Assembly: GCF_023169545.1 (NCBI RefSeq)
Contig: NZ_AP019769.1
Span: forward strand, 60,001 to 92,000
DNA length: 32,000 bases
Reading direction: 5' to 3'
From: Nanobdella aerobiophila
Lineage (GTDB): Archaea; Nanobdellota; Nanobdellia; Nanobdellales; Nanobdellaceae
The position numbers were made by a program, and so were the translations under genes. Shown here one piece after another: positions 3,695 to 32,000 of the stretch. Below the pieces are notes generated by a model that had not been told where the DNA came from, made no database searches, and saw only the letters and a program-made list of their open reading frames with translations. The number at the start of each line of letters is the position of its first letter. Position 1 is the first letter of the stretch.

Positions 3695-3728
3695 ATTCTT
3701 TTAAAATTTTATGGTTATTTTAAAAAAT

Positions 3729-5119: not shown

Positions 5120-5153
5120 ATAAGAATATTATTCTTCCTAAAATATAAAGATA

Positions 5154-7755: not shown

Positions 7756-7807
7756 AAAGATCTATTTTCGAAAAATATTTATATTGTTTTATGATATTTA
7801 TTTATTT

Positions 7808-10150: not shown

Positions 10151-10160
10151 AAATATTTTT

Positions 10161-10180
10161 TAAATTATAAATAATATAAA
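10161..10180. promoter_or_regulatory. Candidate back-to-back TATA elements in a 36-nt divergent spacer
   Basis: taaattataaataatataaa lies between the GH57 start (10150, minus) and the small-ORF start (10187, plus). Each start is about 20-30 nt from a TATA-like half. Low specificity in AT-rich DNA. Confidence 0.3.
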
Positions 10181-10186
10181 TCTTTT

Positions 10187-12779: not shown

Positions 12780-12804
12780 AAATTATAAGAATTTATAAAA
12801 ATAA

Positions 12805-13425: not shown

Positions 13426-13431
13426 TAATAG

Positions 13432-14827: not shown

Positions 14828-14838
14828 ATGAATACGAT

Positions 14839-15117
14839 TTAGAATATATTTAAAAAGTCTTTTGATTGTTTTAAAGTATTAAAAACTTTTATTATTTTTT
14901 TATTCTGTAGATATAATATAAATATTACCTTATATATATCTTTTCTATTTACTATGATTATATAGAAATCATTATATGTTATATAATCAAAATTTAGTTT
15001 ATAATAATCTATATAACCAAAAAAATTTATATAGTCCTTCTTGAACCTTTTTATATCTACATTATTTAATATTATATATCTTCTTTTTATCTTTAATACC
15101 CTTGGTAATACTACCAC
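14839..15117 (-). CDS. rnp2: RNase P protein component 2 (Pop5/Rpp14-like), short form
   Basis: 92 aa with a GTG start. LPRVLKIKRRYIIL matches the Pop5 N-terminal LPptLR.KkRYIaf. The later ..IIIVNRKDIYKVIFILYL...IIKVFNTLKQ parallels giIRc.r......al.l....i.vlgvSGTi. It sits directly upstream of psmA, as in the archaeal exosome/proteasome superoperon. The start overlaps the TFB stop (GTGGTAG). Confidence 0.65.
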   Translation of the reverse strand: MVVLPRVLKIKRRYIILNNVDIKRFKKDYINFFGYIDYYKLNFDYITYNDFYIIIVNRKDIYKVIFILYLQNKKIIKVFNTLKQSKDFLNIF

Positions 15118-16037
15118 TCTTCTACACTATTTAATTTCGCTTCAATATCCTTTAGTTTTAGTTTTTCAAGCATTTCTTTATATCTATTTCTTATTGTAAC
15201 TTCAGTAATCCCTGCCACTTCTGCTATATCCTTTTGAGTTTTTTGTATACCATGTTTTACACATGCTAAATATATTGCTGCAGCCGCTACACCAGCAGGA
15301 CCTCTACCTGCAGTTATATCCGCCTCCTTCGCCTTTTCTACTATTTCTACAGAGGTAGTTATTACTTCAGGTGGAAGATTTAATAATGAAGAGAATCTAT
15401 GTACGTACTCTGTAACTTCAATTGGCGTTATTTTTATCTTTAGAGCTTGTAATAGATGTTTATATGTCCTACCAAGTTCTTTTTTATGTATATTTGAAGC
15501 TTTTATTATTTCATCTATTGTTCTAGCTACATCATGTATTCTACATGCAATATATACGCAAGATGCTACTACGTTTTCAACAGATCTACCTCTAATTAGA
15601 CCCTTTTCCACTGCTTCTAGATATAATTTCAACGCAGTTTCTTCTACTTGTTTTGGTAATTGTAGGAAAGATGATATTCTTTTTAATTCCTGTTGGGCTA
15701 GCTTTAGATTTCTTTCATATGAACTTGTAGACCTTTGTTGCCATTTTTTTAATTTCCTTGTTAATGAGTAATCTTCTTCTCCTGATTCTACCCTACCAAT
15801 TTCAGTAGATAAAGAACTTGCCATATTCGAAAATTTGATTGCGCTACCTGTTCTTGACCTTCTTTCAACATCCTCATTGTTTATTGTTCTATATTCTTTT
15901 CCTAGATATGGCACTTCTTCCATTACATATCCACATTTTGTACAGATCAGCTCAGCAGTTTTTTCATTATATACGAATTCTGTACCACCGCATACAGGAC
16001 ATTTTAACTCCTCTTTTTTTATAAGTTTTTGGACCAT
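15111..16037 (-). CDS. tfb: Transcription initiation factor IIB (TFB)
   Basis: 308 aa. N-terminal Zn ribbon CPVCGGTEFVYNEKTAELICTKCG followed by two cyclin-fold repeats (GRS.E.V.A.C.YIACR.. and GR.P.GVAAAAIYLA). Confidence 0.9.
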   Translation of the reverse strand: MVQKLIKKEELKCPVCGGTEFVYNEKTAELICTKCGYVMEEVPYLGKEYRTINNEDVERRSRTGSAIKFSNMASSLSTEIGRVESGEEDYSLTRKLKKWQQRSTSSYERNLKLAQQELKRISSFLQLPKQVEETALKLYLEAVEKGLIRGRSVENVVASCVYIACRIHDVARTIDEIIKASNIHKKELGRTYKHLLQALKIKITPIEVTEYVHRFSSLLNLPPEVITTSVEIVEKAKEADITAGRGPAGVAAAAIYLACVKHGIQKTQKDIAEVAGITEVTIRNRYKEMLEKLKLKDIEAKLNSVEEW

Positions 16038-16057
16038 TATAAATTTTTAAATATTAT

Positions 16058-16070
16058 CTTTATAAATTTA
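16058..16070 (-). promoter_or_regulatory. Candidate TATA box for the TFB operon (short or no leader)
   Basis: The minus strand reads TTTATAAAG about 22-30 nt upstream of the TFB ATG (16037). Low specificity in this AT-rich background. Confidence 0.3.
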
Positions 16071-16187
16071 ATCTTTTAAATGTTACTACTAAAACTAGTC
16101 ACTTTTAAGGAAATAATTGTTTAAAATAATATATAAAGTAGAACCTTTTATACCTAAAATATTTATAATAAAAGAAAGGCATATCTT

Positions 16188-17156
16188 TTATTTTGCTAGT
16201 GAATCAAAATTTTTTCTTATCCATATTATAAAGAATATTGCCGATATAAATACCATAATTTCTATAGGGTTGAATATCAGTGAGAATATGGGTAATAATG
16301 CTAATATGGATATGGATGAAAGATAAAAGGGTGTCTGACTCAGTATTAAAATATCTCCTATAAATTTGTTTGAGTATGAATATCCAGATCTTACGGAAAT
16401 AAATGGTGATAATATTATACCTAGTGGTATTATAGATAGGTATGTAAAAAATAGTAAAAAGTAGAAGAAATATGTGGTAAATCCGTATATTATGGGACTT
16501 ATAGATGCTAGATACTTAATTATAGAAAATATTAGCCATATAATAGTCATAGATATTAAAAATATTCTTATTAACTCATTATTAGATACTTCTAGATTTT
16601 TGTTTCTACCGATCCTTTTATATTCTATTACTATTGGTTTCATTGAAAATATTATCGGAACTAGAAAACCTAAAGAAATTATAGATATTACTATTGATAT
16701 AATATAGCTTAAATTTAATCTCCTAATAATTGTAATATTCAATCCCTTATCTTTATTTAGGAAATTCTTTAAAGATATATAATAGAAAAATGTGATAAAT
16801 ATTAGAAATATTAATAATAAAAATAGGTTATTTCTAAATATAAAAGATAAAAATATTATTATTAATGCGTATATAATTATAAACATGTATATCTGGCGGA
16901 ATTTCATTGATCTGGTTGAGAATAACATCTTTAGTTCTGCTATAACCAAATCTAGAGATATATATAAACCATACCAAGATGCTACAAGATTAAATATAAT
17001 TAATATAATGAAATATGATAATATAATATAAAATATAGAAAATACTAAATTTGTTATTCCTATAAGTACAGTATCCCATTTATTGAAAGATAAGAAAAAA
17101 GCAACTATTACAAGGTAGTAAAACACATTTTTATTAATTTTTATATATTCAAACAT
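16188..17156 (-). CDS. Hypothetical polytopic membrane protein
   Basis: 322 aa with about 9-10 hydrophobic helices. Divergent from lonB across a 51-nt spacer. No recognisable catalytic motif. Confidence 0.5.
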   Translation of the reverse strand: MFEYIKINKNVFYYLVIVAFFLSFNKWDTVLIGITNLVFSIFYIILSYFIILIIFNLVASWYGLYISLDLVIAELKMLFSTRSMKFRQIYMFIIIYALIIIFLSFIFRNNLFLLLIFLIFITFFYYISLKNFLNKDKGLNITIIRRLNLSYIISIVISIISLGFLVPIIFSMKPIVIEYKRIGRNKNLEVSNNELIRIFLISMTIIWLIFSIIKYLASISPIIYGFTTYFFYFLLFFTYLSIIPLGIILSPFISVRSGYSYSNKFIGDILILSQTPFYLSSISILALLPIFSLIFNPIEIMVFISAIFFIIWIRKNFDSLAK

Positions 17157-17207: not shown

Positions 17208-20200
17208 ATGAGTGATAATAGTATAATATCTATAACAGATCTGTATAAGATATTCACTTTTAAGAGTACCAAAGATATAGAAGTACCAAAAAAAATTTCA
17301 GAACAGGTAATTGGGCAAGATTCTGCGCTAGATATAATTAAAAAAGCTGCAAATCAGAAAAGAAATGTACTATTAATAGGAGATCCCGGTACAGGTAAGT
17401 CTATGCTAGCCCAAGCCTTAGCAGAGATAATTTCTGAAAATAAAAATAATATAGATTCTCTAGAGGATATAGTCGTTTTTCCAAATCCCCAGGACGAATA
17501 TAATCCTATAGTTAGAACTTTCCCTGCAGGTACTGGAAAAAAGTTAGTAGATGAAATGAAAAAGAAAATTGCAGAACAGGCAAAATTCTTTCAATATTTC
17601 TATTTGGCTTTATTACTAATAGCATCATTAACTCCATTGTATTTTTATTATGTACAAAATTATATAATGGCAGGATCTACATTTATTGGTTTTATGATAC
17701 TAATAGCAGGTCTATCTTTTTCAATGCAGTTTGTTCAAAAGCAAATATTAAAAGGTGTTCCAAAAGTAATTGTTGATAATAAAGATAAGACTAGTGTTCC
17801 TTTTGTAGATGCGACTGGAGCATTTGAGGGGATGTTGTTTGGTGATGTGCTTCATGATCCCTATCAATGTCTAAGGAAGCAGAATGAAATTTATGTCGTA
17901 AACGGAGAGAAAATAATTCCAATGGAAATTAACAAATTTGTGGAAAATATTTTGAAGGAAAATGAGGATAAATTATTTATTAATGAGGAAAATAATATAA
18001 AAATTGTTGCTACTAAAGTAAATAAACCAATTTATATTCTTGGATATAAAGATGGAAAAATTCAACCTGTTAAAGTTATATCTGTTAATAAAAGAATTGG
18101 TCCTCAAGAGATATATAATATAAATAGTAGAGATGTTGTAATATCTGTTACTCCAGATCATAAAATATTTGATAGAAATTTAAAAATGATAGAAGCAGAG
18201 AATATTAAAAAAGATATATTTTATAGGTTCTATGATAATATAAATATTTTAACAGAAGAAGATATTGTAAGAACATATGGAGAAGAAGAATTAGAAAGAT
18301 ATAAATTATACTTAAAATGGAAGGAATTTAAAGAAAAAAATCCTGGTATAGGATATAAAAAAGCAGCAAAAATATTAAATATACTAGAATTCAAAATAAA
18401 GGAGTGGGAAGAAGGAATGAAACCTCCAAGTTTATATATAATTGGAGAGTTAAAGAAATTGAATTTATTACCATTAAAACTATCTGATGATAGATTATTA
18501 ATTATTGCAAGAATTATTGGTGGATTATTTGGAAATGGAAATATAGATAAAAATTTGAACACTTTAGCATATATATCATCAGAAAAAGAAGCCATTGATA
18601 ATTTCATAAGAGATTTAAAATCTATATTTGGTGATTTTACATATGAAATAAGAGAAAGTGATAAAGCATATTTATTTAGAACTACTGAAAGAAGGATAAT
18701 AAGATTTTTTGTTGCATTGGGTGCTCCAGTTGGTAAAAAAACAGAAATTATATTAAAAATACCAGAGTGGATATACAATAGAAGAGATTTAATACTATCC
18801 TTTTTAGATGGTTTTTATAGTGCAGAAGGTTTTGTACCAAGATATTGGAAATGTAAAGATGGACATAAAATAAAAAATAAAGTAGAAATAATATTGTTAA
18901 ATAAAAATAAGGAAACAATAGAAGAATTAGAAAGGTTTATAGATAAGTTGTATACATTGAGATTAAAAGCGAGATTAAGAATAGAAAGAAGAGATGGAAA
19001 GTATTTAATAAGAATAATGTTTAGTCAATCTTTTGAAAATACTTTTAGATTATATAAATTAATAGGATTTTCATATTCTCCAAGAAAAAGAGAGAGATTT
19101 GAAGAAGTTATTAATTCATATATTAAAGATTATTCAGAATTTAAAAGAAAAAATGTATTAGAAGCTATTCAAATATTGAAGTATAATTATGATAGAAAAT
19201 TATATAGGGTTAAAGAATTAGTAGATGTAACATATAATATAACAACAGAATCTGGTAATTTAATTGTAAATGGCATATTAGTTAAAAATTCTGGAGGACT
19301 AGAAACACCAGCTCATCAAAGGGTAGTTGCAGGTGCGATACATAAAGCAAATAAAGGTGTGCTATTTATAGATGAGATTGGAACATTAAGACCAGAAGTC
19401 CAGATAGAGTTATTAACTGTATTACAAGAAAAGAAATATTCAATATTTGGAAGATCAGAAAGATCGGCTGGTGCCATGGTTAGGACTACTCCCGCACCTG
19501 CAGATTTTATATTAGTAGCAGCAGGTAATTTAGAAACAGTGGAAAAATTACATCCTGCTTTTAGATCAAGAATTAGGGGTTATGGTTATGAAGTATATAT
19601 GAAATCTGAAACGAAGTTTACTAAAGAAACTGCACTAAAATATGCACAGTTTGTTGCTCAGGAAGTTAAAAAATCCGGTAATATACCACCATTTACAAAA
19701 GAAGCCGTTATAGAAGTAATAAAGGAAGCTCAAAGAAGATCCGGAAAAAAAGATTATTTAACATTAAGATTAAGAGATTTAGGTGGATTGATAAGATTAG
19801 CTGGTGATATAGCTAGATTAAAAAATAAAGAATTTGTGGAAGCAGAAGATGTTATAGAGGCTAAAGATAAGGCGCTAACTCTAGAAGATCAAATATCTAG
19901 ATATTATATAGAGAGAAGAAAAGAATATGAATTGATTAAAAATGAGGGAAGTCTTATAGGAAGAGTAAATGGATTAGCAGTAATTGGATCTAAAATATAT
20001 TATTCTGGAATTGTATTGCCTGTGGAAGCAGAAGTTGTTCCTGGAAAAGGAGCAGGGAAGGTAATTGCAACGGGTAATTTAGGAAAGATTGCTAAAGAAG
20101 CAATAATAAATGTATCTACAGTCATTAAGAAGAAATTTAAAGAAGATTTAAAGAAATATGATGTTCATGTACAATTTTTACAAACTTATGAGGGGGTGGA

Positions 20201-20492
20201 AGGCGATTCTGCATCAATTACCGTGGCTACAGCAATAATATCCGCATTAAAAAACTGGCCTGTAAGACAAGATATAGCAATGACAGGATCATTATCTATT
20301 AGGGGAGAAGTATTGCCTATAGGCGGTGTAATAGCAAAAATTGAGGCAGCAATAGAATATGGTTTGAAAGAAGTATTAGTACCAGAAAGTAATTATAATG
20401 ATATTCCGGAAGATTTATTTAATAAGATAAAGATAATACCTGTAAAAACAATAGATGAAGTTATAGATCATGCTTTAATTAAGAATATTTAA
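17208..20492 (+). CDS. lonB: Archaeal membrane-bound Lon protease (LonB), intein-containing precursor
   Basis: Walker A GDPGTGKS. Two TM helices inserted in the AAA+ module (FFQYFYLALLLIASL.., STFIGFMILIAGLSF). Walker B GVLFIDEIG. Protease Ser in EGDSASITVATA and Lys in IGGVIAKIEAA. The extein junction HDPYQ|..|SGGLETPAHQRVVAG is contiguous in intein-free LonB. The mature protein would be 620 aa. Confidence 0.9.
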   Translation: MSDNSIISITDLYKIFTFKSTKDIEVPKKISEQVIGQDSALDIIKKAANQKRNVLLIGDPGTGKSMLAQALAEIISENKNNIDSLEDIVVFPNPQDEYNPIVRTFPAGTGKKLVDEMKKKIAEQAKFFQYFYLALLLIASLTPLYFYYVQNYIMAGSTFIGFMILIAGLSFSMQFVQKQILKGVPKVIVDNKDKTSVPFVDATGAFEGMLFGDVLHDPYQCLRKQNEIYVVNGEKIIPMEINKFVENILKENEDKLFINEENNIKIVATKVNKPIYILGYKDGKIQPVKVISVNKRIGPQEIYNINSRDVVISVTPDHKIFDRNLKMIEAENIKKDIFYRFYDNINILTEEDIVRTYGEEELERYKLYLKWKEFKEKNPGIGYKKAAKILNILEFKIKEWEEGMKPPSLYIIGELKKLNLLPLKLSDDRLLIIARIIGGLFGNGNIDKNLNTLAYISSEKEAIDNFIRDLKSIFGDFTYEIRESDKAYLFRTTERRIIRFFVALGAPVGKKTEIILKIPEWIYNRRDLILSFLDGFYSAEGFVPRYWKCKDGHKIKNKVEIILLNKNKETIEELERFIDKLYTLRLKARLRIERRDGKYLIRIMFSQSFENTFRLYKLIGFSYSPRKRERFEEVINSYIKDYSEFKRKNVLEAIQILKYNYDRKLYRVKELVDVTYNITTESGNLIVNGILVKNSGGLETPAHQRVVAGAIHKANKGVLFIDEIGTLRPEVQIELLTVLQEKKYSIFGRSERSAGAMVRTTPAPADFILVAAGNLETVEKLHPAFRSRIRGYGYEVYMKSETKFTKETALKYAQFVAQEVKKSGNIPPFTKEAVIEVIKEAQRRSGKKDYLTLRLRDLGGLIRLAGDIARLKNKEFVEAEDVIEAKDKALTLEDQISRYYIERRKEYELIKNEGSLIGRVNGLAVIGSKIYYSGIVLPVEAEVVPGKGAGKVIATGNLGKIAKEAIINVSTVIKKKFKEDLKKYDVHVQFLQTYEGVEGDSASITVATAIISALKNWPVRQDIAMTGSLSIRGEVLPIGGVIAKIEAAIEYGLKEVLVPESNYNDIPEDLFNKIKIIPVKTIDEVIDHALIKNI
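17868..19289 (+). mobile_element. Intein (474 aa) with LAGLIDADG homing-endonuclease domain, inserted in lonB
   Basis: Starts with Cys (CLRKQNEIYV, aa 221). Block B ISVTPDHKIF (TxxH). LAGLIDADG-like motifs IIGGLFGNGNID (about 18496-18552) and FLDGFYSAEGFV (about 18791-18836). Block F/G VDVTYNITTESGNLIVNGILVKN, followed by the +1 Ser of SGG. Confidence 0.85.
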
Positions 20493-20517: not shown

Positions 20518-23500
20518 ATGAAGAAGATACTCTATCTTTTATTTTTATTATTGATTTATCCAATATATTCCCAAAATGTTTGGCACGAAAATAATGTATA
20601 TGATCCAGTTACATTTTTAAATATAAGCTTATCAAATAATTATCTTCAACCGAATAATATATTATACTATAATGTTTCTATAAATTATAGAGATATATAT
20701 TATATACCAAATGCATCATTGGTAATACAGATAATTCAAAAAGGTGATAATAATAGCATATATCCATATCAATTTAATAATGATAATGAAATATATGAAT
20801 ATGTAATAAGAAATCTATATTTACAACCCGGGGAAACTATAAATATACCATTAAAATATATAGTACCTTATAATTTAGATCCTGGATACTATTATATTGT
20901 TGCATACTTATATACACCTCTAAACAATATAAATGGTTTGCCATTTATATACTATCCTGGATCATATACAGAATTTTATGTAGATAGTATTAATGGAGGT
21001 TATCCATCAATGTATATTGTAAAAAATGACACTTATCTATCATCTAGTTCTTTATATACATACGGTTCTATATTATACTCTTCAGGATATTATTATTCTT
21101 CATTAAGTGGGCCTACAGGATATGGAGTATCTAATGGTTTAAATATGTCAGTAGATATATATTCTCAAAATAATGCTAATGCCACATTATTATTATTAAT
21201 ATCACCATGGGATGATATTCTATACAGTCCTGTATATAATAATACATATAATATAAATTTGAATTCAGGTTATAATATAATAAACATAGATAATATAAAT
21301 ATTTCAAGTTTACCACCAAATGTATATTCTGCTAGATTAGAATTGCTATATAATAATACAGTAGAATCAATATATAGATTAAGATTTATAGTTTTGGGTC
21401 CAACTACCAGATTAGATGGAGTCTTTTTACAGGGAAATGGAAATCTAACATTTATAGTTGCTCCATCTCCAGATCATTATACGTACCCTACAACTCCAAA
21501 TGTCATTGCCCAAGTATATTCTAATATATTAGGATTTAATGAAAATATATCTCTCGGAAATATAAGTTGGTATAATACTCAATTTACATATGTAAATTTA
21601 CAATTGCCATTAAATTCGACAAAATTTGATTTATGTATAAATTTGTATTCTAATAATAATCTAGATTATAATTATTGTACTTATTATAATATTAATCAAT
21701 CTGATACATATGGTTTACCATTATCTCAATTAGTTTATGTAAATTATACAAATAATTATTTCTATATATGTTCAAATATATCTGGCAATCTAATCGTTGC
21801 ATATAATTCTCCAGCAAATACACTATTATCAACAAATGTAGATAATAATTGTTATAATTATAGTGATATTAGTAATGGAACGTATTATATATCATTTTAT
21901 TCTTCTCAATATTCTAATCAATGGATAATTAATAATACTTACTATCCTTCAAAAACAAATATATTGATAAAACCAATAAAACAACAAAATGATAATATAT
22001 ATTATCTTGCCTTAGTAATAGTTATAATAATAATTTCTATATTATTATATATGATAAAAAGGTGGAAAATATTCGCGATATTTATAGTTGGTCTCGTATT
22101 TTTATCAACTATCCATTCTCAAACTATAACAGTATCACCAACTAATCTATGTTCTCCTTCTGGATCAGTAACCATTACAACTTCAAATTATTCTGGTGAT
22201 GTAAATGTAAATTATACATTCTTTAATCCAAATAATAATTTTGTATATTCTAGTGGTCAATACAAGTATTTTGGTAGTTCTTATTCTTATACAATCGCAT
22301 TGAATAATCTACCAGCCGGTATTAATGTACCAATTGAATATAATATAGATGTTGAAAATTGTACAATTGTTAATTTATCTATTTCATGTAGTTATAATAC
22401 CTACAATGGATATATATATTCAAATTACCCATTTTATTTTGAATACTATTCAAATCCAATATATACTTCCTCAGATGATGCAGCATATATTGTTGCAGGA
22501 TGTTCAAATTCTGAAAATATTATAAATAATACATACTTTAATTTTACTGTAATATTGCCCAATGGAACCAGTATTTTAACAAGGACTAATTGTTCAGGGG
22601 CAGGAGATCCTGATTGGGGACAGAATTTATGTGATTTAAATATATATAATTATGATAATTCAATAGGTAATTATACTTATAATGGATCATATGATTATAA
22701 TGGACAACTATATAATATACCATTTGTAGGAAACCCATTACAAGTATTGGGTGCGTCCGCTGGTACTTTTACCAGTGTTTCTTGTACCCATGCTGTAGCA
22801 GATGTAAGTGCAAATTCTAGCTCTAATCCTCTACAAATTTATTTTAATTACAATGGTCCAAACACAGGTAATTACTATACTTATGATAATGGGGTATATA
22901 TATTAGCCCAGAATACTTCTCTTGGATTTAATGTGAATGGTGGATATAATGGTTTATGTTCAGATGGTGTGACAAATTCAGGAACTCCTTCAATAGCATT
23001 TTGGCTATATTCTACAGATCAATATTTCGATCCAAATTCATCTGTATATATTTTAGGAACTTCCAATGCTGGTATAACATTTAGTAATTATTTTGTGGAT
23101 AGGAGTACAATATATAATATACATCCAAATGAAGGTTTTGTTTTACCATCTGGTTCTCCGTTATGGCTAGCTCTGGAAGGTGGATCTTCTGTCAATGTAT
23201 ATAATTTCAATGAAAATAATCCAGGATATTATATATTATATACAGATTATATAAGAACTGTTTGTGGAAGTCCGGAAGATTATATATGTGATCCAAATGG
23301 TAATCTATGTAGTTATGGCCATATACAAGGCGAAGCCTGGGGATGGTTGCCAATAAACCCCGAACCTGGATATTATTTCTTAGTGATAAATCCAGATGCG
23401 ACAGTTAATGTTCAAAATATAAGTTATTATCCTTATATATATAATATAAATCCCGGTGATCCTATATATCTCGGATATATTGATAATATAGGAATTGGTA

Positions 23501-24750
23501 ATCTAACTGTAGGAGAAAATTATATATTGCCAGATCCAATATTGGTAAATAATAATTTCTTATTGCAAGAAAATCAAAATATATCCTTATATGCATATTT
23601 TCCAACAAATGAATGTTCTCATGTAAGCTGTCAAATACCATACAATGTTAGTTATCAAAATGCATACGGATTAACAGTATATAGTCCAGTGGAGTATTCT
23701 GGATATATAAATATATATTGGGATAATTTGTCTGTTTATACAAATCCATCAATAACGAAGATTACTTATGGACCAGTTAATCTAACTATAGGAGTAGAAA
23801 ATTTAGGACCTGTGCCAGCAGAAAATGTTTCTATATATAATTTACAATATGATCCTGCATGTGTACAAATATTAAATATTTATAATGATTCACTAATAAA
23901 CCCGGGCGCTACCGCATATTTAAATATAGAGATAAATATAACTAATTCAAATTGCAACCCACAAGATTATAATATATCATTTAGTGTATATGGTTGGAAT
24001 ACATATATATATAATTACTCTTTATTATTACCATTAAATCAGGTAAATAATCCTCCAAATGGCGTACAATTAAGCTCTAATACCGTATTTAATATAAAAG
24101 ATATAAATTATCAAGCATGTTATATATCATTTAATAATGCTCAATATCCAAGAAATTGTAATTCTGATTTCTTATATCAAAATGGAATGTGTGCTGGTTC
24201 TATATGTAATACAGAAGTAATTACAGATAATCAATATGCACAATTTGACAATTATTATACATATTATAATTATCTAACCAATTCCAGTTCTATATTTGGA
24301 GTATCATCCTCTAGTCAAGTAATATCTATATATGTAGGCCAACAATATAATTATCAGGTATTAATAAAAAATCTAGTACCATCTCAAATAAATTGTACAA
24401 TAGATACATTGCCAATAATATCAAATGATGACGCACAAGTACTATATTTTAATATAAACGGAATAAATAATCTTAACTTTACCATAGGTCCTGATGGCGT
24501 TGCTAATCTATATATTAATGTCTTGGGTTTGAAATCCGGTGTAGCTAATTTAATATATGGATTTACATGTAATAGTTTATACGGATCATCTACATATAGT
24601 CAAGAAGTGCCTGTATATGTTCTAGAGCCAAATGGACAACTAGCAAATAATGTTAGTAACTTGATTACATCAGAGGAAATAAGTCCTGGAGAATTAATAG
24701 GAGTTTCTATAGGTATATTAGCAGTAGCACTAACACTTGGGCTAATATAA
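20518..24750 (+). CDS. Giant surface protein ORF: two signal-peptide/TM-anchor modules fused in frame (module 1 20518-22050, module 2 22051-24750)
   Basis: 1410 aa. N-terminal signal MKKILYLLFLLLIYPIYS|QN. Mid-ORF anchor-like TM helix YLALVIVIIIISILLY, followed immediately by MIKRWKIFAIFIVGLVFLSTIHS|QT (a second signal-peptide-like segment, Met at 22051). Final C-terminal TM helix LIGVSIGILAVALTLGLI*. Sequon-rich. Module 2 has about 25 Cys and a CARDB-like stretch (PVNLTIGVENLGPVPAENVSIYNL, about 23740-23960). Confidence 0.65.
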   Translation: MKKILYLLFLLLIYPIYSQNVWHENNVYDPVTFLNISLSNNYLQPNNILYYNVSINYRDIYYIPNASLVIQIIQKGDNNSIYPYQFNNDNEIYEYVIRNLYLQPGETINIPLKYIVPYNLDPGYYYIVAYLYTPLNNINGLPFIYYPGSYTEFYVDSINGGYPSMYIVKNDTYLSSSSLYTYGSILYSSGYYYSSLSGPTGYGVSNGLNMSVDIYSQNNANATLLLLISPWDDILYSPVYNNTYNINLNSGYNIINIDNINISSLPPNVYSARLELLYNNTVESIYRLRFIVLGPTTRLDGVFLQGNGNLTFIVAPSPDHYTYPTTPNVIAQVYSNILGFNENISLGNISWYNTQFTYVNLQLPLNSTKFDLCINLYSNNNLDYNYCTYYNINQSDTYGLPLSQLVYVNYTNNYFYICSNISGNLIVAYNSPANTLLSTNVDNNCYNYSDISNGTYYISFYSSQYSNQWIINNTYYPSKTNILIKPIKQQNDNIYYLALVIVIIIISILLYMIKRWKIFAIFIVGLVFLSTIHSQTITVSPTNLCSPSGSVTITTSNYSGDVNVNYTFFNPNNNFVYSSGQYKYFGSSYSYTIALNNLPAGINVPIEYNIDVENCTIVNLSISCSYNTYNGYIYSNYPFYFEYYSNPIYTSSDDAAYIVAGCSNSENIINNTYFNFTVILPNGTSILTRTNCSGAGDPDWGQNLCDLNIYNYDNSIGNYTYNGSYDYNGQLYNIPFVGNPLQVLGASAGTFTSVSCTHAVADVSANSSSNPLQIYFNYNGPNTGNYYTYDNGVYILAQNTSLGFNVNGGYNGLCSDGVTNSGTPSIAFWLYSTDQYFDPNSSVYILGTSNAGITFSNYFVDRSTIYNIHPNEGFVLPSGSPLWLALEGGSSVNVYNFNENNPGYYILYTDYIRTVCGSPEDYICDPNGNLCSYGHIQGEAWGWLPINPEPGYYFLVINPDATVNVQNISYYPYIYNINPGDPIYLGYIDNIGIGNLTVGENYILPDPILVNNNFLLQENQNISLYAYFPTNECSHVSCQIPYNVSYQNAYGLTVYSPVEYSGYINIYWDNLSVYTNPSITKITYGPVNLTIGVENLGPVPAENVSIYNLQYDPACVQILNIYNDSLINPGATAYLNIEINITNSNCNPQDYNISFSVYGWNTYIYNYSLLLPLNQVNNPPNGVQLSSNTVFNIKDINYQACYISFNNAQYPRNCNSDFLYQNGMCAGSICNTEVITDNQYAQFDNYYTYYNYLTNSSSIFGVSSSSQVISIYVGQQYNYQVLIKNLVPSQINCTIDTLPIISNDDAQVLYFNINGINNLNFTIGPDGVANLYINVLGLKSGVANLIYGFTCNSLYGSSTYSQEVPVYVLEPNGQLANNVSNLITSEEISPGELIGVSIGILAVALTLGLI

Positions 24751-25560: not shown

Positions 25561-25870
25561 AATTTCTTATTTTGGACCTTTAAGATCTTTTATCGGTTTG
25601 ATGTTTCAAATACCAAAAAAAGATCATATATATATCTTAGATATGAAAAAAGATATAGATGATGGCTTTGTACATACTTTCTTTTGTATAAAACCATTAG
25701 ATATATATCTATATAATTCTAATTTAGAATTAGTATCTTATAAGAAAAACATGAAACAATTTAGTATATTATTACCAAAAAAGCCATTTAGGTATATAAT
25801 AGAAGGTATAAATCTAGATAAAAATAAGATAAATTTTGCTTTATCAAATCTTTCCAATAGTATCAGATAA
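25538..25870 (+). CDS. DUF192 (COG1430)-like protein
   Basis: 110 aa. SFIGLMFQ..KDHIYILDMKKD..VHTFFCIKPLDIYLYNSNLELVSY...PFRYIIEG parallels the DUF192 pattern (r.rGLM.r..l..d.GmlF.....fwMkn..ipLDi.f.d..g.v......a.yvLEl). Confidence 0.55.
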   Translation: MESESKYKISYFGPLRSFIGLMFQIPKKDHIYILDMKKDIDDGFVHTFFCIKPLDIYLYNSNLELVSYKKNMKQFSILLPKKPFRYIIEGINLDKNKINFALSNLSNSIR

Positions 25871-26230
25871 TATTTCCATTTCTATAAATAATCTGTCTAC
25901 GGAACTTTTTATATTCTTTACGCTATTATTTATATTTGCTAATATTTCTGTTTTTAGTGCTGGATATATATATGGATTATTTGCAATTTCTTTATAATAC
26001 ATTTCTATATAGTTTTTTATTAATTCTAACATTGAGAAAAGATTATTTATAAGATTGATTATATTATTTATCTCCTGCATTTCATAATTATATAGGTAAT
26101 ATTGATTATTTTGGTAATATTTTTCATAATTGTTTAGATTTTGAATATATAATATGATATTATTCATCTGAGACATAATATTTTTTATATTATTTAATAT
26201 TTCATTTTCATTATCTTGCACATTATTCAT
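25844..26230 (-). CDS. Hypothetical Asn/Ile/Tyr-rich helical protein
   Basis: 128 aa of low-complexity, heptad-like sequence. It fills the gap between the sRNA and the DUF192 gene. No family recognised, and coding status is uncertain. Confidence 0.35.
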   Translation of the reverse strand: MNNVQDNENEILNNIKNIMSQMNNIILYIQNLNNYEKYYQNNQYYLYNYEMQEINNIINLINNLFSMLELIKNYIEMYYKEIANNPYIYPALKTEILANINNSVKNIKSSVDRLFIEMEILSDTIGKI

Positions 26231-26948: not shown

Positions 26949-27776
26949 ATGTTTGCTCATGCTAAAGGAAATAAAAATTCAAAGTGGAAAATGATCGGTA
27001 TCCCATCTGAAGTCGGTAGTTTATCAAATATAAAATTTTATTCAAATGGACCTAAAGCAATTAGAGATGCATCATATAAAGTATTTGATACATTATTGGG
27101 AGATATAGATTTGGAAGATATAGAAGATCTAGGGGATATAGATATAGAAGATATAAGAGATATAAATTATTTATATAATTATATATATAATAGATTAAAG
27201 GAAATATATGATAAAAATAAAAAATATATATTTTTAGGTGGGGATCATTCTATAACATATCCTATATTAAAATTAATTAGAGAAAATTGGAACAATTACA
27301 AGTTATTATATTTTGATGCACATCCAGATATGCATCCAGATCCTTATCCAAACTATGAAAGTTATATATACTATTTAATAAAAGAAGAATATTTGAATCC
27401 AGAAGATATAATCATGGTTGGTATATCTAATCTATCTTTTGAAGAAAAAAATATATTAAAGGATTGGAATATAAAATATTATAATTTTTATGAAGTATGG
27501 GATAATATAAATGATATTTCTAGAGAAATAAGTAATATATTAGATAATAAAAATTTATATATATCTATAGATATAGATGTATTTGAAAATGGATGTGGCC
27601 ATTGGTTGGAGGGAATGGGAATAAAGGTATATCATTATTTAAAGATATTGAAGGAGTTAAAAAATGTACATTTAATTGGTTTTGATCTGACCGAATTATT
27701 TTCTAGTAATATATGCAATAATCTAGCCGTAAAGATAATATTAGAAACTATATCTATATTTAATTATTATAAATAG
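26949..27776 (+). CDS. speB: Agmatinase/arginase-family ureohydrolase
   Basis: 275 aa. IGIPSEVGS..NGPKAIRDAS; metal-ligand motifs GGDHSITY, FDAHPDMHPD and SIDIDVFE; then GFDLTEL. The segment after DIDV (FENGCGHW) departs from the usual DPaxaPGtg. The true start may be the internal Met of WKMIGIP. Confidence 0.7.
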   Translation: MFAHAKGNKNSKWKMIGIPSEVGSLSNIKFYSNGPKAIRDASYKVFDTLLGDIDLEDIEDLGDIDIEDIRDINYLYNYIYNRLKEIYDKNKKYIFLGGDHSITYPILKLIRENWNNYKLLYFDAHPDMHPDPYPNYESYIYYLIKEEYLNPEDIIMVGISNLSFEEKNILKDWNIKYYNFYEVWDNINDISREISNILDNKNLYISIDIDVFENGCGHWLEGMGIKVYHYLKILKELKNVHLIGFDLTELFSSNICNNLAVKIILETISIFNYYK

Positions 27777-28806
27777 AATGTATATATATTAATAATATTA
27801 ATATTGTTCCAAAGATTAAAGTATTTAAGGTTAATAATATTATTTTTTCATATATATTTAATTTTATTATATAGTTAATAAAATCAATGAAGTTAATTAT
27901 TATAATTGGTATACCAGAAGATATTCCTAATAATATTTTTTTATTATTTGGATATTTATGATATAAATATGCATGTATAGCTGTAAAATAAAATATTATA
28001 GAAATTAATATATTTTCAATAGAATAAAATATTATATTGTTATATATTATATAATATAGAGAGCTAAATATAAATATGAATATAAATAATATTAAAAAAT
28101 ACATTGTAAAACCTTCTATTTTCCTATTAAATAGTTTATATATTAGATATAATATTATGATTTCGAAAATGGAAAATATTAATATATCTATTATAAAAAA
28201 TATATTTTGTTCCAATGAAAATAGTATTTGTAATAATAATAATATAAATAGAAAGCAGAATATATATCTTTTATAAATATTGATATTATTTAATTTAGTA
28301 AAACTAATGTTCTTATTATCTTTTGATATATTAAATAATACTACAAATAATATTAATGGTATTAGATATGGAATATTTATATTATATATATAGACTAAAA
28401 TAAATAAATAAAATACTGATATTATATAAAATATAAATGATTTTCTATTTATTATTAATTTTTCTTCTCCAATATAGTTCCCAATCAGATAAGATATTAT
28501 GAAGAAAAATATATTATTATATATAAATATAAATAGGCTATTTATATTTAATAGTCTAGCTAATATATCAATTGGAACTAAAATATATAAAAATTTGATC
28601 ATATTTGTATTTGATCTTTTTAATAAAAGATATAATATTGGTATATATATTGCTCCGAATACAGAAAATGATATTAAATAATTTTTTATATATATGAAAG
28701 ATATAATTATAGATAAAAAATAAAATAATATATATAATATAAAAATATATTTTGATATATTTTGATTTTCGTCTATATATTTATCTATAAATGTTTCATT
28801 TGGCAT
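27760..28806 (-). CDS. Polytopic membrane protein, paralog of 30721-31926 (unknown function)
   Basis: 348 aa with about 10 TM helices. Blocks shared with the 401-aa protein: FGAIYIPILYLLLKRSNTN vs FGIIYIPILLLLLKYTKTT; LVPIDIL vs LFPLEIF; ISFTKLNNINIYKRYIF vs IDLSKLNKINNYKKIII; late-TM His (AIHAYLYH vs GIHYFF). Confidence 0.55.
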   Translation of the reverse strand: MPNETFIDKYIDENQNISKYIFILYILFYFLSIIISFIYIKNYLISFSVFGAIYIPILYLLLKRSNTNMIKFLYILVPIDILARLLNINSLFIFIYNNIFFFIISYLIGNYIGEEKLIINRKSFIFYIISVFYLFILVYIYNINIPYLIPLILFVVLFNISKDNKNISFTKLNNINIYKRYIFCFLFILLLLQILFSLEQNIFFIIDILIFSIFEIIILYLIYKLFNRKIEGFTMYFLILFIFIFIFSSLYYIIYNNIIFYSIENILISIIFYFTAIHAYLYHKYPNNKKILLGISSGIPIIIINFIDFINYIIKLNIYEKIILLTLNTLIFGTILILLIYIHSIYNN

Positions 28807-28839
28807 TTATATATATTTATTAATAAATTATTATAAATA

Positions 28840-29484
28840 TTATACAATTTTTATACCATTTCCCGTTTTTTCTAGATATACATCTGTAGACCCATAAAAA
28901 CTAATATTATTAATAAATTTACATGGTATTATATTACAAATGTATTTATCATTATAACTTTCTGTACAAATTTTATTATTATATACATAAGTTTCTGATA
29001 GAAATACAAAGGACTGATTAGAAATATTTTCATTATTAATACAAAAATTGTAGACAAAATAATAGAAATCTGAATAATAATTTTCGCATATTTGTATATT
29101 TATACTAGATAATTGGCCGTCTATAGATATAAAATACGAATTATTATCGCAATTACCATAGTAATTAATTATTCCTAAACTATAATTATTTATATACACC
29201 CTAAATGGATATGGAAAAACTGCGCAATCAGGTAGTTCATTATAAAAACTATTATTAAAATAAATTAATTTATTTATTGTTGTATAAAATATAGGGTAAC
29301 TTGGCGACCCTAAACAATTATTAGAAAATATTTCATATAATATATTTTGAGAATAAGAAAAGTCGTTGTTGCTTTCATAATTATATAAATCATATCCAGA
29401 ATATATAGATGTTATTAATATTATCCCTACTAAAAATAATACCAAAATTATTGTTGTAAATATTATAGAAAATTGAGATTTCAT
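28840..29484 (-). CDS. N-terminally anchored or pilin-like, Cys-containing extracellular protein
   Basis: 214 aa. N-terminus MKSQFSIIFTTIILVLFLVGIILI (short basic tip, Gln, then a hydrophobic helix, as in archaeal class III/type IV pilin signals with +1 Gln). Asn/Tyr-rich ectodomain with 8 Cys (my count). The start lies 1 nt after the upstream stop. Confidence 0.5.
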   Translation of the reverse strand: MKSQFSIIFTTIILVLFLVGIILITSIYSGYDLYNYESNNDFSYSQNILYEIFSNNCLGSPSYPIFYTTINKLIYFNNSFYNELPDCAVFPYPFRVYINNYSLGIINYYGNCDNNSYFISIDGQLSSINIQICENYYSDFYYFVYNFCINNENISNQSFVFLSETYVYNNKICTESYNDKYICNIIPCKFINNISFYGSTDVYLEKTGNGIKIV

Positions 29485-29485
29485 A

Positions 29486-30718
29486 TTAATTAATACATGA
29501 TGTAGGTGTAGGCGGTGTTATTGTTGCAGGGCATGATATTGACTGAACGCATTCTTGTGCCAATGATTGGTCACATCCGCAATATGTTCCCAATACACAT
29601 GCAGAACATGTATTGGATATGCTATATATATAATTATAATTTATTGTTCCTTCTCCATTTTTCGATGAGGAGCTTCCGCATATTATATTATTATTTGAAT
29701 TACAAGAATCCTGATTATTATTTAATGTACAAGAGGAAGATATCACTTGTCCTGTAGTTAAGTTATATGTATATGTACATGAATAGTCGCAGATTTTATG
29801 TGCAGTATATGTATCATTATTTTGATATACTATAGAATTTATATTTATTTTTTGGGGAACTGTATTTCCATTATAATATATATTATATTGTGTATCTTCA
29901 CAACTTAAAGTAATTATACATGCAGTATTCTGAGCTATGCATGTATATGGACAACTTGCAGAACATAAATTTGGAGTTTCTATACTTTCATTACATTTTA
30001 TATATGGATTATTTGTAAATTGCTCAAAATTTTGTGCACAAGTATTTATAAAATTATTATTTAAAGCATTAGCGCAATCTACGAAGGAACATTGAGAAAA
30101 TTCTCCAGATTGTGAAAATTGAACGCCTTCATTATATAAATAAAATGCAGGATTATCGGATACTGTTTGATTAGCGCTATAAGGATATATATATTCTGAA
30201 TTATTATTATAAACGGTTAAATATATACCAGTCACGTATACAGGATATTCATAATTATAATTACCAGCTTCTATATTATTACACGAACCTAAAACACCAG
30301 CATAATAATTTGTTGAAATATTGGTTTCTATATTGTAAGGATAATAATATTGTAATTTTTCTAAATCATATATACTATTATATATATTTGTTGCTATACC
30401 CTCTTCTGTTAAATTACTATAATAATTTAAAGCAGCCTGGCATGATTGTGGAGCACCGCAGGCTTCTGGATATGCCGCCCAATATTCTTTTCCCCACGAA
30501 TTTAACCCCGCTATATAAGATTGTGTGTACGCTTGTTGTGTAATTAAAGTATTTATATAACCTAGAAAATAATCTGTTAGTGTTACTGAAGAAGTGAATC
30601 TTATAAATATTTCATTTTGTTTGGAACTTAATGATATAGATACAAAAGATAGTATTATAATTACAGTTATAAAAGCTATAAATAATAACACATATATAAA
30701 TTCTATTTGATTTCTCAT
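29486..30718 (-). CDS. N-terminally anchored or pilin-like, Cys-rich extracellular protein
   Basis: 410 aa. N-terminus MRNQIEFIYVLLFIAFITVIIIL (compare the class III signal consensus K/R-G-Q-x-S-x-E-F). 24 Cys by my count, concentrated in the C-terminal 230 aa. Pro/Thr-rich tail PATITPPTPTSCIN. The start lies 2 nt after the upstream stop. Confidence 0.55.
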   Translation of the reverse strand: MRNQIEFIYVLLFIAFITVIIILSFVSISLSSKQNEIFIRFTSSVTLTDYFLGYINTLITQQAYTQSYIAGLNSWGKEYWAAYPEACGAPQSCQAALNYYSNLTEEGIATNIYNSIYDLEKLQYYYPYNIETNISTNYYAGVLGSCNNIEAGNYNYEYPVYVTGIYLTVYNNNSEYIYPYSANQTVSDNPAFYLYNEGVQFSQSGEFSQCSFVDCANALNNNFINTCAQNFEQFTNNPYIKCNESIETPNLCSASCPYTCIAQNTACIITLSCEDTQYNIYYNGNTVPQKININSIVYQNNDTYTAHKICDYSCTYTYNLTTGQVISSSCTLNNNQDSCNSNNNIICGSSSSKNGEGTINYNYIYSISNTCSACVLGTYCGCDQSLAQECVQSISCPATITPPTPTSCIN

Positions 30719-30720
30719 TA

Positions 30721-31926
30721 TTATATCTTAGTATGTAAATATATAAGTGTTAATATTGATAATGTAACGATAACTCCATGAATTACACCTAAACTTAGTG
30801 CAAGATTTGGTAAGCTAAATATTGGTAATAAGAAAGAATTCATTCCTGGAGCAATACCAAATATTTCATTTTCTAATAATTCGCCAGATACCAATTGGAA
30901 TATTAATAAAATACCTAAAGTTATTCCTATAGATTTTTTCAATATATTAGTATTTTTTCTATTAAAAAAATAATGTATACCTAGAAAGAAAAATATAAAT
31001 GATATAATTATTCTTGTATGTAAGAGATACATTAGATAGCTATCATAAAATAAATATAAAACGCCAAAAAATATCTGTAAATTATATAAAAATAATAGTA
31101 TAATGCTATAAAATGATACAAATTTATTTTTTAATTTTTTATATATTAAATAAAATATTATATACTCATATATTGATATAAAAATCATTGATAAAGATAT
31201 ATATTTATAATATGGGTCATTTATATTTGGATGTTTTATATAAAATAATGATAAAATAATTGAATATATTAGCTGTATAAATATTATAATTTGAGTTGCA
31301 TATATAATTATTTTTTTATAATTATTTATTTTATTTAATTTTGATAAATCTATACCATTGTTTTTATTTAGATAATTATATAAAAATATAGGTATTAATG
31401 TTATTAATATTAAAAATTCAAATAAATACTCTGCTATATCTGTCTTATAAAATAAATAAGCTATATTTATAACTATTTGTGGTAATATAACATCAACATC
31501 AGTTCCAATTACATTTATTACAGTATTTATAAATAATAGGATAATAAAATAAGATAATAAGAATATATAAATTATTAATTGTTTTTTTGATATCTTTAGA
31601 TTATTTATTATTAATGATTGTCCAATAAAATACGCTAATAGATAAAAGAAAATATATAAATAAAATAATTCTGCTATAAAATTATGGAATGTATTTATTG
31701 AAAAAATTTCTAAAGGAAATAATAGATATATAATTTTATAATTATTATAAGTTGTTTTTGTATACTTTAGTAATAATAAAAGTATTGGTATATAAATTAT
31801 ACCAAATATAATATTAAATATGTTTATACCAAATAATATATAATTTTTATTCCATATCTTAATAAAAGAAAATGATAATAATATTATTAGATAATAAAAA
31901 ATAAATTTTTTATTATTGTCTACCAT
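30721..31926 (-). CDS. Polytopic membrane protein, paralog of 27760-28806 (unknown function)
   Basis: 401 aa with about 11-12 TM helices and no Cys. First gene of the four-gene minus-strand cassette. Similarity blocks to the 348-aa protein as listed there. Confidence 0.55.
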   Translation of the reverse strand: MVDNNKKFIFYYLIILLSFSFIKIWNKNYILFGINIFNIIFGIIYIPILLLLLKYTKTTYNNYKIIYLLFPLEIFSINTFHNFIAELFYLYIFFYLLAYFIGQSLIINNLKISKKQLIIYIFLLSYFIILLFINTVINVIGTDVDVILPQIVINIAYLFYKTDIAEYLFEFLILITLIPIFLYNYLNKNNGIDLSKLNKINNYKKIIIYATQIIIFIQLIYSIILSLFYIKHPNINDPYYKYISLSMIFISIYEYIIFYLIYKKLKNKFVSFYSIILLFLYNLQIFFGVLYLFYDSYLMYLLHTRIIISFIFFFLGIHYFFNRKNTNILKKSIGITLGILLIFQLVSGELLENEIFGIAPGMNSFLLPIFSLPNLALSLGVIHGVIVTLSILTLIYLHTKI

Positions 31927-32000
31927 GTATCTAGCACTCCAACCAGATATCCGCCCAAGTTTAGTTTAGGAATTGGCAAATAAAAATAATATGTATATAA

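Follow-up and report, generated by a model that had tools for sequence, protein, structure and literature searches.

A putative type IV filament-like operon with Cys-rich subunits and an orphan membrane protein family in Nanobdella aerobiophila and its relatives

We analyzed a stretch of 32,000 nucleotides (nt) from the genome of Nanobdella aerobiophila MJ1, which we call the window, and focused on the four genes that lie on the minus strand next to its end and encode proteins of 401, 410, 214 and 348 amino acids (aa). MJ1 is a cultivated ectosymbiont of Metallosphaera and belongs to the DPANN archaea (Diapherotrites, Parvarchaeota, Aenigmarchaeota, Nanoarchaeota and Nanohaloarchaeota). The 401- and the 214-aa proteins are exact matches to MJ1_0106 and MJ1_0104, respectively. 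The four genes are the distal module, that is, the 3' third, of one operon of 12 to 14 genes that continues past the window with a gene for a 522-aa protein. In our judgement, this operon probably encodes a divergent surface apparatus of the archaeal type IV filament (TFF) kind, with Cys-rich subunits. The system has no ATPase or prepilin peptidase in cis and includes a novel orphan family of accessory proteins with 12 transmembrane (TM) helices; as a TFF, it is a variant so far undescribed.

In the mechanism that we propose, the 410-, 214- and 522-aa proteins would insert with their N-termini inside, using a basic leader of very few residues and a helix of ~22 hydrophobic ones. Removal of the leader at [KR]-x/Q (the slash marks the predicted cleavage site) would leave an N-terminal Gln, to be compared with the Gln +1, EppA and pyroglutamate of the Methanococcus Epd system. 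Judging from composition and conservation, the disulfide-rich, glycosylated ectodomains would face outward, and a platform similar to GspF/PilC/ArlJ would extract and assemble the subunits using an ATPase encoded elsewhere. The size of the large proteins suggests that, on a fiber of smaller subunits, they could be adhesins or take the place of minor or tip subunits. MJ1_0106 would be a lineage-specific accessory that most likely docks, modifies or stabilizes the large subunits at the outer face, and the 348-aa protein an optional, probably structural copy of it in which the conserved outer site has been lost. The role of the whole could be surface adhesion or host contact, which is speculative.

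An operon that continues beyond the window

The four open reading frames (ORFs) were re-read from the sequence and found as the sequence-only reading had described them, with gaps of 2, 1 and 33 nt between consecutive genes (Table 1). The set also reaches the edge of the window as claimed, since the last bases encode the C-terminus of the 522-aa protein; the stop codon of this upstream gene and the start of the 401-aa gene overlap by 7 nt. These junctions of 7, 2 and 1 nt indicate co-translation of MJ1_0106 with the pilin-like genes. At the opposite end, the 348-aa gene is overlapped by 17 nt by the 3' end of an arginase-family gene. The GC content of the window is 14-32%, and, because low-GC sequence has frequent stop codons, ORFs of 214 to 410 codons are no chance products; besides, all four are conserved at the protein level in other genomes. 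The TTTATAA-like element found before the 348-aa gene is a possible internal promoter, but in such an AT-rich genome its presence is uninformative.

We reconstructed the rest of the operon from the window and two Logan contigs (L001 and L012) of one MJ1 co-culture run. From 5' to 3', it encodes a protein of ~250 aa with a class III signal, the 655-aa platform candidate, small pilin-like proteins of 92, 159 and 137 aa, a membrane-anchored papain-family peptidase, a 285-aa Cys-rich protein and, finally, the 522-, 401-, 410-, 214- and 348-aa proteins. L001 covers the genes upstream of the window (522 aa, 285 aa and the C-terminal part of the peptidase), each of which overlaps the next by a few bases. 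L012 contains the end of the ~250-aa protein, which is Cys-rich, followed by the 655-aa polytopic protein, the three small proteins and the N-terminus of the peptidase. On the ortholog from strain YN1, the fragments from MJ1 cover residues 1-141 and 349-578, with ~600 bp unassembled between them. It was with this ortholog that membership of the papain family was confirmed (Pfam Peptidase_C1, E 6.4e-18, 66 bits for a cut-off of 20.7). The 285-aa protein has a signal at its N-terminus and is anchored by a TM segment at its C-terminus.

To describe conservation, we used six Nanobdellales/Nanopusillaceae lineages from thermoacidic habitats: MJ1, YN1, the Nanopusillus metagenome-assembled genomes RSNS12 and RSNS15, Nanobsidianus stetteri Nst1 and the SRR2944620x lineage. 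The gene order is common to all of them, and the block 522-401-410-214 is invariant even though the lineages share merely 40-60% identity; orthologs of the 522-aa protein are 50-58% identical in the six loci. The flanks are constant as well, with a RimK-like/DUF371 pair upstream and the convergent arginase-family gene downstream. The synteny expected by the sequence-only reading is thus present for this block in six lineages, but the 348-aa gene is kept in only three of them (MJ1, YN1 and Nst1) and is absent from RSNS12, RSNS15 and the SRR2944620x lineage. Given this absence, a layout flanked by paralogous membrane proteins is not the conserved one. Neither are the four genes the self-contained, compact operon first described, being the tail of the larger cluster.

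Regarding the peptidase, its N-terminal module varies. The proteins from MJ1 and YN1 start with a TM domain (MEKWFW...), while in three other lineages this domain is a separate ORF of 146-149 aa and the peptidase itself starts with MKKNQ or MKRYQ. These starts are class III-like, which suggests that the protease is displayed via the same signal as the pilin-like proteins. Members of the 270-285-aa Cys-rich family have 14 Cys, a Sec-type signal and a conserved C-terminal tail, [IL][IL]P-x3-TM-YY[IL]K, that resembles a tripartite C-terminal sorting signal; YN1 encodes an extra short paralog. The RimK-like ATP-grasp and DUF371 genes overlap each other and, in every case, directly precede the first pilin-like gene on its own strand. 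Finally, contig APJZ01000007 from Nst1 presents an inverted second copy of 522-401-(half of 410), probably a chimeric join from single-cell amplification and not a true duplication.

Short N-terminal signals, Cys-rich ectodomains and a diverged platform

The 410-aa protein starts with MRN-Q-IEF followed by ~22 hydrophobic residues, the 214-aa protein with MKS-Q-FS followed by ~23, and the 522-aa protein with MKSQ and a hydrophobic helix. Compared with the features of class III signals, the pair from the window has K/R at -2, Gln at +1, 22-23 hydrophobic residues and a non-canonical -1. Among the ORFs of the window, the [KR]-x-Q motif is restricted to these two, and four or five further proteins with it are encoded beyond the edge; six gene families of the operon have it in common. 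On L012, the N-termini of the 92-, 159- and 137-aa proteins are MKA/Q, MKND and MAMKG/Q, respectively. The register of the motif is kept while the leader varies from 3 to 5 residues (MAMKGQ, MAIKSQ, MKKNQ, MKRYQ), and the residue before the Gln can be G, A or S, and also N, E, L, I, V or Y, within single orthologous families. At times a canonical -1 is found in these families, as in MAMKG/Q and MKA/Q from MJ1 or MRA/Q from L010. From these alignments, the motif has the look of a class III signal that keeps Gln +1 fixed but no longer constrains -1. A canonical class III N-terminus, M[KR][KR]R[AGS]/[VI]D.AV (KRA/V, RRG/I, KRS/I), is found in the first gene of the operon, whose family has a homolog in a distant locus, a protein with a canonical MSKG/ leader (hhalign probability 90%). 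We also detected a weak, in-register relationship between the 410- and 522-aa families over their N-terminal 64 residues (hhalign probability 64%, E 6e-5).

At -1, the archaeal prepilin peptidases known so far have a strong preference for Gly and also accept Ala, and at -2/-3 they favor basic residues; PibD takes extremely short leaders, and Gln +1 is a key determinant for the pilin-specific EppA (PMC2913515). In the pilin of Methanococcus maripaludis, Gln 1 is converted to pyroglutamate (PMC4471445). Since the -1 residue found here differs from the Gly or Ala that known peptidases prefer, cleavage at [KR]-x/Q remains a prediction.

Recounting gave the 24 and 8 Cys previously noted for the 410- and 214-aa proteins, which amount to 5.9% and 3.7% of their residues against ~0-1% in most other proteins of the window; the 522-aa protein has 12. 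In the 214-aa family, none of the eight Cys varies among nine orthologs, and in six orthologs of the 410-aa family Q4, E6 and many Cys are invariant. The 410-, 214- and 522-aa proteins present 7, 6 and 13 N-x-S/T sequons, respectively. Invariant Cys together with a raised sequon density would fit extracellular disulfide-bonded glycoproteins. The two inner proteins of the cassette do share the M-[KR]-x-Q-hydrophobic N-terminus, as noted before, but past it we detected no similarity between them. The ectodomains of the 410-, 214- and 522-aa families showed no resemblance to one another and gave no match to the PDB or Pfam, and profile searches of the PDB with the 401/348, 214, 410, 522 and ~250-aa families returned nothing significant. 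The 214-aa family consists of 13 clusters only, all of them 54-61% identical. Two matches of the 410-aa protein were discarded: one to the archaeal-type 'Pilin protein' 8dft (E 3.4), which covered the hydrophobic helix only and carries no weight, and one of its N-terminus to a mycoplasma membrane family in the Pfam/NCBIfam scans, a meaningless hydrophobic match.

We identify the 655-aa protein as a diverged platform of the GspF/PilC/ArlJ type (T2SSF) on five lines of evidence. In Pfam, T2SSF was matched by 4 of the 19 homologs, a tie with an unrelated phage family, and gave the lowest E-value of all (0.0037); in the MJ1 protein the match spans model positions 3-124 of 125. When the family profile was compared with the PDB, the best match was the cytoplasmic domain of EpsF/GspF, which aligned to the second cytoplasmic domain. 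The AlphaFold2 (AF2) model had a predicted local distance difference test (pLDDT) of 85.5 and a predicted TM-score (pTM) of 0.83, and the cytoplasmic domain of the model could be superposed on OutF (5nbg_A; probability 1.00, TM-score 0.74, root-mean-square deviation 2.8 Å) and on EpsF (2vmb_B; probability 0.99, TM-score 0.69). The two halves of the protein show a weak in-register similarity to each other. Besides, a 28%-identical homolog in a metagenomic locus sits directly downstream of a T2SSE ATPase and is followed by proteins with MRKG/, MKG/ and KKKG/ leaders and a hydrophobic helix, including one of 693 aa with 38 Cys and one of 826 aa with 58 Cys. In a second distant locus, at least seven MKG/-type proteins surround the platform gene, several of them Cys-rich.

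Members of the platform family are about 650-720 aa long and, among the matches bearing a lineage name, were seen in Nanopusillaceae, Aenigmarchaeota and Diapherotrites. The 655-aa protein is not the ArlJ that has been annotated in the archaellum cluster. Because the distant platform homologs adjoin a T2SSE ATPase and Cys-rich proteins with MKG/ leaders, a pilin-like interpretation of the inner proteins is supported by comparative genomics as well as by operon context, within what sequence comparison can predict. In the distant DPANN loci, we detected no homologs of the 214-, 410-, 522- and 401-aa proteins. Two such loci with the platform family, L017 and L015, are listed in Table 1, and one of the two has a T2SSE ATPase in cis. 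Cys-rich TFF loci of this type seem to be widespread in DPANN, and we found no description of them.

Several observations weigh against a TFF-like apparatus. With 410 and 522 aa, two of the proteins far exceed typical pilin size. The -1 residue is S, N, E or V in both families of the window and not Gly or Ala, and here the class III signals with Gln +1 first proposed for the inner proteins depart from the canonical form; the M-[KR]-x-Q-hydrophobic pattern is kept in the orthologs. The platform protein (655/656 aa) has no Pfam match above the curated thresholds and its structural matches are local. For want of an informative relative, any role given to the 12-TM family is conjecture, and the published studies that we found do not report expression or localization of the cassette genes. 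Finally, no T2SSE ATPase or A24 prepilin peptidase was found by a profile scan of the proteins of the 32-kb window, in agreement with the sequence-only reading. Looking past position 32,000, as it had suggested, yielded the platform, the ~250-aa protein with its canonical class III signal and further [KR]-x-Q proteins; in YN1, RSNS12, RSNS15 and the SRR2944620x lineage, neither enzyme is encoded within 10 kb of the cluster. Nanoarchaea have been reported to possess ArlI and an orphan TFF ATPase (literature including PMC4858521); the TFF ATPase had no identifiable pilins, and no recognizable prepilin peptidase was present in two nanoarchaea, one of them with an archaellum (PMC4858521).

One could argue that the class III-like N-termini serve only to anchor or arrange large globular enzymes and adhesins in a bindosome-like array, for which the platform builds either no stalk or a short one of the pseudopilus type, an arrangement proposed for the sugar-binding proteins of Sulfolobus and for the Bas system. 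The bindosome itself and sugar-binding proteins processed by PibD have been described (PMC2913515), and large, globular subunits, a C1 peptidase with an MKKNQ/MKRYQ signal in three lineages and the lack of an ATPase in cis all agree with such an array. We nevertheless regard it as rather unlikely: the pilin-sized proteins of the cluster (~250 aa and several of 90-160 aa) would suit a fiber, and cryo-electron tomography (cryo-ET) has revealed filaments of unassigned identity in MJ1 (PMC11104419).

The orphan family of 12-TM proteins

The outer proteins of the cassette (401 and 348 aa) had been described as paralogs without a known family, and both statements hold. BLASTP aligned them with an E-value of 2e-10 and 35% identity over 202 columns, and the blocks FG.IYIPIL.LLLK, P[LI][DE]I and KLN.IN.YK are all there. 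Nothing was found for them in Pfam or NCBIfam; scans of all four proteins of the cassette against both, down to E 1-10, gave no meaningful match. A word-indexed search of 5.8 billion proteins with the 401/348 family retrieved 3 matches and an exhaustive HMMER profile search of 1.84 billion representatives retrieved 10, in both cases close relatives only. The AF2 model of MJ1_0106 is all-helical, with a pLDDT of 73 that is mostly >85 for residues 190-401. Foldseek searches of this model against the PDB and BFVD gave a best E-value of 0.25 and a TM-score of ~0.2, the matches to rhodopsins being generic helical bundles. According to the sequence and the model helices, 22 of the 28 Lys/Arg lie in alternate loops assigned to the cytoplasm, which predicts a 12-TM topology with both the N- and the C-terminus inside. 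A 6+6 duplication was considered and dropped, as hhalign gave a weak signal only between the N- and C-terminal halves.

In seven 401-type sequences, the invariant polar residues cluster in the last three TM helices. The model would place H303-T-R305, E349, E352 and H383-G at the outer face and H318 and H398 at the inner face. From these residues, the 348-type keeps H318 and H398 alone, the outer-face invariants being lost, and it lacks an insert at ~143-175. When the seven 401-type and three 348-type sequences are taken together, the inner-face invariants are a Lys, a Tyr and two His, with no invariant Asp. In the model, the outer-face cluster of His, Arg and Glu suggests a site of activity, or of binding for the ectodomains or for a lipid-linked donor. 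The spacing of the paired His is exactly 15 (303/318 and 383/398), which recalls bis-His heme sites.

Several known classes could be set aside. An A24 prepilin peptidase is excluded for the outer proteins, given the lack of an invariant Asp pair and of a GxGD motif. An archaeosortase- or exosortase-type enzyme, against which the absence of Cys had been put forward, is excluded by the lack of a conserved Cys, and there was no profile match either. The pair is not entirely Cys-free as had been claimed: the 401-aa protein has none, but the 348-aa protein of MJ1 has one, which is not conserved. The argument against FlaJ/PilC stands, as no loop is longer than ~25 residues and hhalign against the platform family gave a probability of 0.1%. 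CPBP/Rce1-type proteases and ZIP or other transporter motifs were rejected or found no support, their defining residues, or the order of these, being absent.

The outer-face residues could point to MJ1_0106 being a transferase that moves a lipid-linked glycan or another group onto the neighboring proteins at the outer face, with the 348-aa protein as a catalytically dead copy. In the WaaL/PglL family, His and Arg of a periplasmic loop bind the lipid pyrophosphate; here, an invariant His-x-Arg, a Glu-x-x-Glu and a His lie at the outer face of a protein with 12 TM helices and no soluble domain, all of them are lost in the paralog, and the gene is translationally coupled to those of sequon-rich secreted proteins. 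The lack of any Wzy_C, GT-C or other Pfam/NCBIfam match even at E 10, and of a similar fold in the PDB by Foldseek, leads us to consider this transferase distinctly improbable.

We also weighed a transmembrane redox or metal protein with bis-His sites, possibly di-heme, that would bring or take away electrons at the outer face for the many disulfides of the secreted proteins. The four invariant His form two pairs 15 residues apart on two parallel helices with one helix between them, an Arg stands next to the outer His, the paralog retains the inner pair only, and the neighboring proteins are exceptionally Cys-rich. This layout recalls cytochrome b and ferric-reductase-domain proteins, but known di-heme spacings are usually 13-14 residues, not 15. 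Neither fold nor sequence matched any heme protein, the 12-TM family has no conserved Cys and, to our knowledge, a route for heme biosynthesis or uptake is expected to be absent from such reduced genomes, so that we hold this role to be very unlikely.

A transporter fold could have escaped detection, since the N-terminal half of the MJ1_0106 model is of low confidence. The outer proteins might then be fast-evolving transporters and the inner ones signal-anchored secreted proteins, lying beside a TFF cluster to which they have no functional link. A 12-TM protein of 350-400 aa with both termini inside is a common transporter format, and the 348-aa copy is dispensable. We give this little credence, still less than the redox role, considering the 7-, 2- and 1-nt junctions that indicate co-translation, the order 522-401-410-214 kept in six lineages at 40-60% identity, the occurrence of the 12-TM family nowhere else in 1.84 billion proteins and the [KR]-x-Q motif shared with the small pilin-like genes upstream.

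The last alternative, and the one with the slightest chance in our view, is that [KR]-x/Q is recognized by the 12-TM proteins, as a class III signal peptidase of a type other than A24 or as another maturation enzyme. The eppA product of Methanococcus is polytopic and encoded among Gln +1 pilin genes. The 12-TM family is confined to the lineages with a relaxed -1 and a fixed Gln +1 and is absent from the canonical MKG/ loci, but this co-occurrence amounts to a single evolutionary event. The missing prepilin peptidase of two nanoarchaea (PMC4858521) would be explained by such an enzyme. Against it, there is no invariant Asp or GxGD, and the invariant acidic residues are at the outer face when the cleavage site is cytoplasmic, where two His are found only. 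Of the roles considered, that of an accessory to a TFF-like apparatus is the one that we favor for MJ1_0106.

Host contact, neighboring genes and known systems

By cryo-ET, MJ1 presents archaella, a second appendage of 15 nm and an attachment organelle with a cone, a portal, a barrier and a 7-nm tube (PMC11104419). In YN1 and YN4 the organelle is the same and has a filament measuring 6.6-8.2 nm; its proteins are stated to be unknown (PMC11420986; bioRxiv 10.64898/2026.06.04.730037). A second type of appendage and an intercellular tube or filament were seen in MJ1, YN1 and YN4, and the studies of the three strains leave the proteins of the attachment organelle unassigned (PMC11104419, PMC11420986, bioRxiv 10.64898/2026.06.04.730037). 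A survey of MJ1 surface proteins does not mention MJ1_0103 to MJ1_0110, and in the published literature we found no mention of MJ1_0103 to MJ1_0106 or of the YN1 orthologs. A 2026 census of archaeal TFFs places some Nanoarchaeota in subsystem 4A and does not describe the Nanobdellales cluster.

It is plausible, if speculative, that the four genes are candidate parts of the host-contact machinery. In a more specific and joint reading, the operon would build part of the Nanobdellales attachment organelle (the 7-8-nm tube or filament, or the 15-nm appendage), with the Cys-rich [KR]-x-Q proteins as subunits or tip adhesins, the papain-like peptidase opening the host's surface layer (S-layer), and the 12-TM family as a new pilin-maturation or assembly enzyme standing in for class III signal processing or subunit modification, for which no genes are recognizable in these genomes. 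Taken as a whole, we consider this combination unlikely.

Few DPANN ectosymbionts have been cultivated, MJ1, YN1 and YN4 among them, and for such cultivable systems the cluster yields a short list of genes that are candidates for a part in host contact. For the nanoarchaeal TFF ATPase that lacks cognate pilins, it would supply the missing platform and set of pilin-like subunits. The cluster is kept in every thermoacidic relative sampled and brings, in addition, a surface protease and an orphan membrane family. Regarding the class III-type signal with a fixed Gln +1 and a free -1, its processing, if it occurs, implies a peptidase specificity so far undescribed.

Other genes of the window were also inspected (Table 1). 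The LonB protease (1094 aa) appears to contain an intein-like insertion: AAA matches stop at ~80 and resume at ~678, with LAGLIDADG_2 at residues 546-604 and Lon_C at 895-1091. It is followed by a 1410-aa protein with no Pfam match, 25 Cys and 48 N-x-S/T sequons, which by gene counting is probably MJ1_0095, one of the immunoglobulin (Ig)-fold surface proteins of the Kato et al. preprint; in YN1 and RSNS12, a homolog of 1295-1461 aa is found as a conserved neighbor of the cluster. A protease of the thermopsin family, with 42 sequons, is a candidate extracellular glycoprotein. We also found a glycogen-metabolism block and a 128-aa protein in which 21% of the residues are Asn. This protein has no Pfam match, is conserved at 54-57% identity and lies beside the UDG gene in all related genomes.

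Table 1. Coordinates of the cassette, of related loci and of other genes of the window.
Feature	Sequence	Coordinates	Strand	Remarks
3' end of the 522-aa gene (26 codons and stop)	Window	31920-32000	minus	Probably MJ1_0107; cut by the window edge
MJ1_0106, 401-aa 12-TM protein	Window	30721-31926	minus	Orphan family; predicted N-in/C-in
410-aa protein, inferred MJ1_0105	Window	29486-30718	minus	Candidate large pilin-like or adhesin subunit
MJ1_0104, 214-aa protein	Window	28840-29484	minus	Candidate small pilin-like subunit
Intergenic spacer (33 nt)	Window	28807-28839	minus	A/T only; TTTATAA-like element before the 348-aa gene
348-aa paralog of MJ1_0106, inferred MJ1_0103	Window	27760-28806	minus	Final gene of the operon
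Arginase-family gene	Window	26949-27776	plus	Convergent; downstream boundary of the operon, outside the system
Papain-family peptidase of the operon	L002; L005; L006; L010	4938-6677; 5548-7481; 5421-7484; 7629-9611
270-285-aa Cys-rich family	L001; L002	815-1672; 6674-7525 and 7960-8478
RimK-like/DUF371 pair	L002; L005; L009	1-950; 375-1611; 7911-9144
522-401-(half of 410), two copies	L007 (Nst1, APJZ01000007)	462-3841; 7387-10789	plus; minus	Second copy inverted
DPANN locus with the platform family	L017 (ENA ERZ27248172 contig)	4503-16962
DPANN locus with the platform family	L015 (JGI 3300064102 contig)	100-14400
Thermopsin-family protease	Window	1287-3620	plus
Glycogen-metabolism block	Window	6130-12779		GDE_C, GT4, GH57, glycogen synthase
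LonB protease	Window	17208-20492	plus	1094 aa
1410-aa protein	Window	20518-24750	plus	Probably MJ1_0095
128-aa Asn-rich protein	Window	25844-26230	minus

In order to contextualize these results, we compared the operon with known systems. Polytopic proteins are encoded beside pilin genes in other systems too, such as the A24 peptidases or the O-oligosaccharyltransferases PilO/TfpO/PglL, whose substrates are the pilins encoded alongside, but MJ1_0106 and its paralog show no GxGD, Wzy_C or fold match. As in the GspF/PilC/ArlJ platforms, the 655-aa protein has two cytoplasmic helical domains with TM helices after each, although its sequence is too diverged for the Pfam threshold. The DPANN loci L017 and L015 encode the same platform family amid proteins with basic leaders of 3-4 residues, several of them very large and extremely Cys-rich; they differ in their canonical MKG/ leaders, in the ATPase in cis of one of them and in that neither has the 12-TM family.

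The Sulfolobus bindosome/Bas system also relies on large extracellular proteins with short class III-type N-termini (PMC2913515). Here, these proteins are Cys-rich orphans and a papain-like peptidase instead of solute-binding proteins, there is no ATPase in cis and no sequence kinship was detected. The Bas system, too, has a platform and small pilin-like proteins encoded alongside.

Finally, the operon resembles that of the Epd pili of M. maripaludis (EpdA-E, EppA) in having several pilin-like proteins per locus and class III signals with Gln +1 (PMC2913515, PMC4471445). In comparison with Epd, an EppA/A24 homolog and an ATPase are not in the locus, the leader has 3-5 residues only, and -1 is often N, E, L, I, V or Y and not Gly. 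The Epd pilin family has the motif QxSxE, and the 214-aa family likewise begins with Q-x-S. Unlike Epd, the operon described here encodes Cys-rich subunits of up to 410-522 aa and includes a 12-TM family among its subunit genes.

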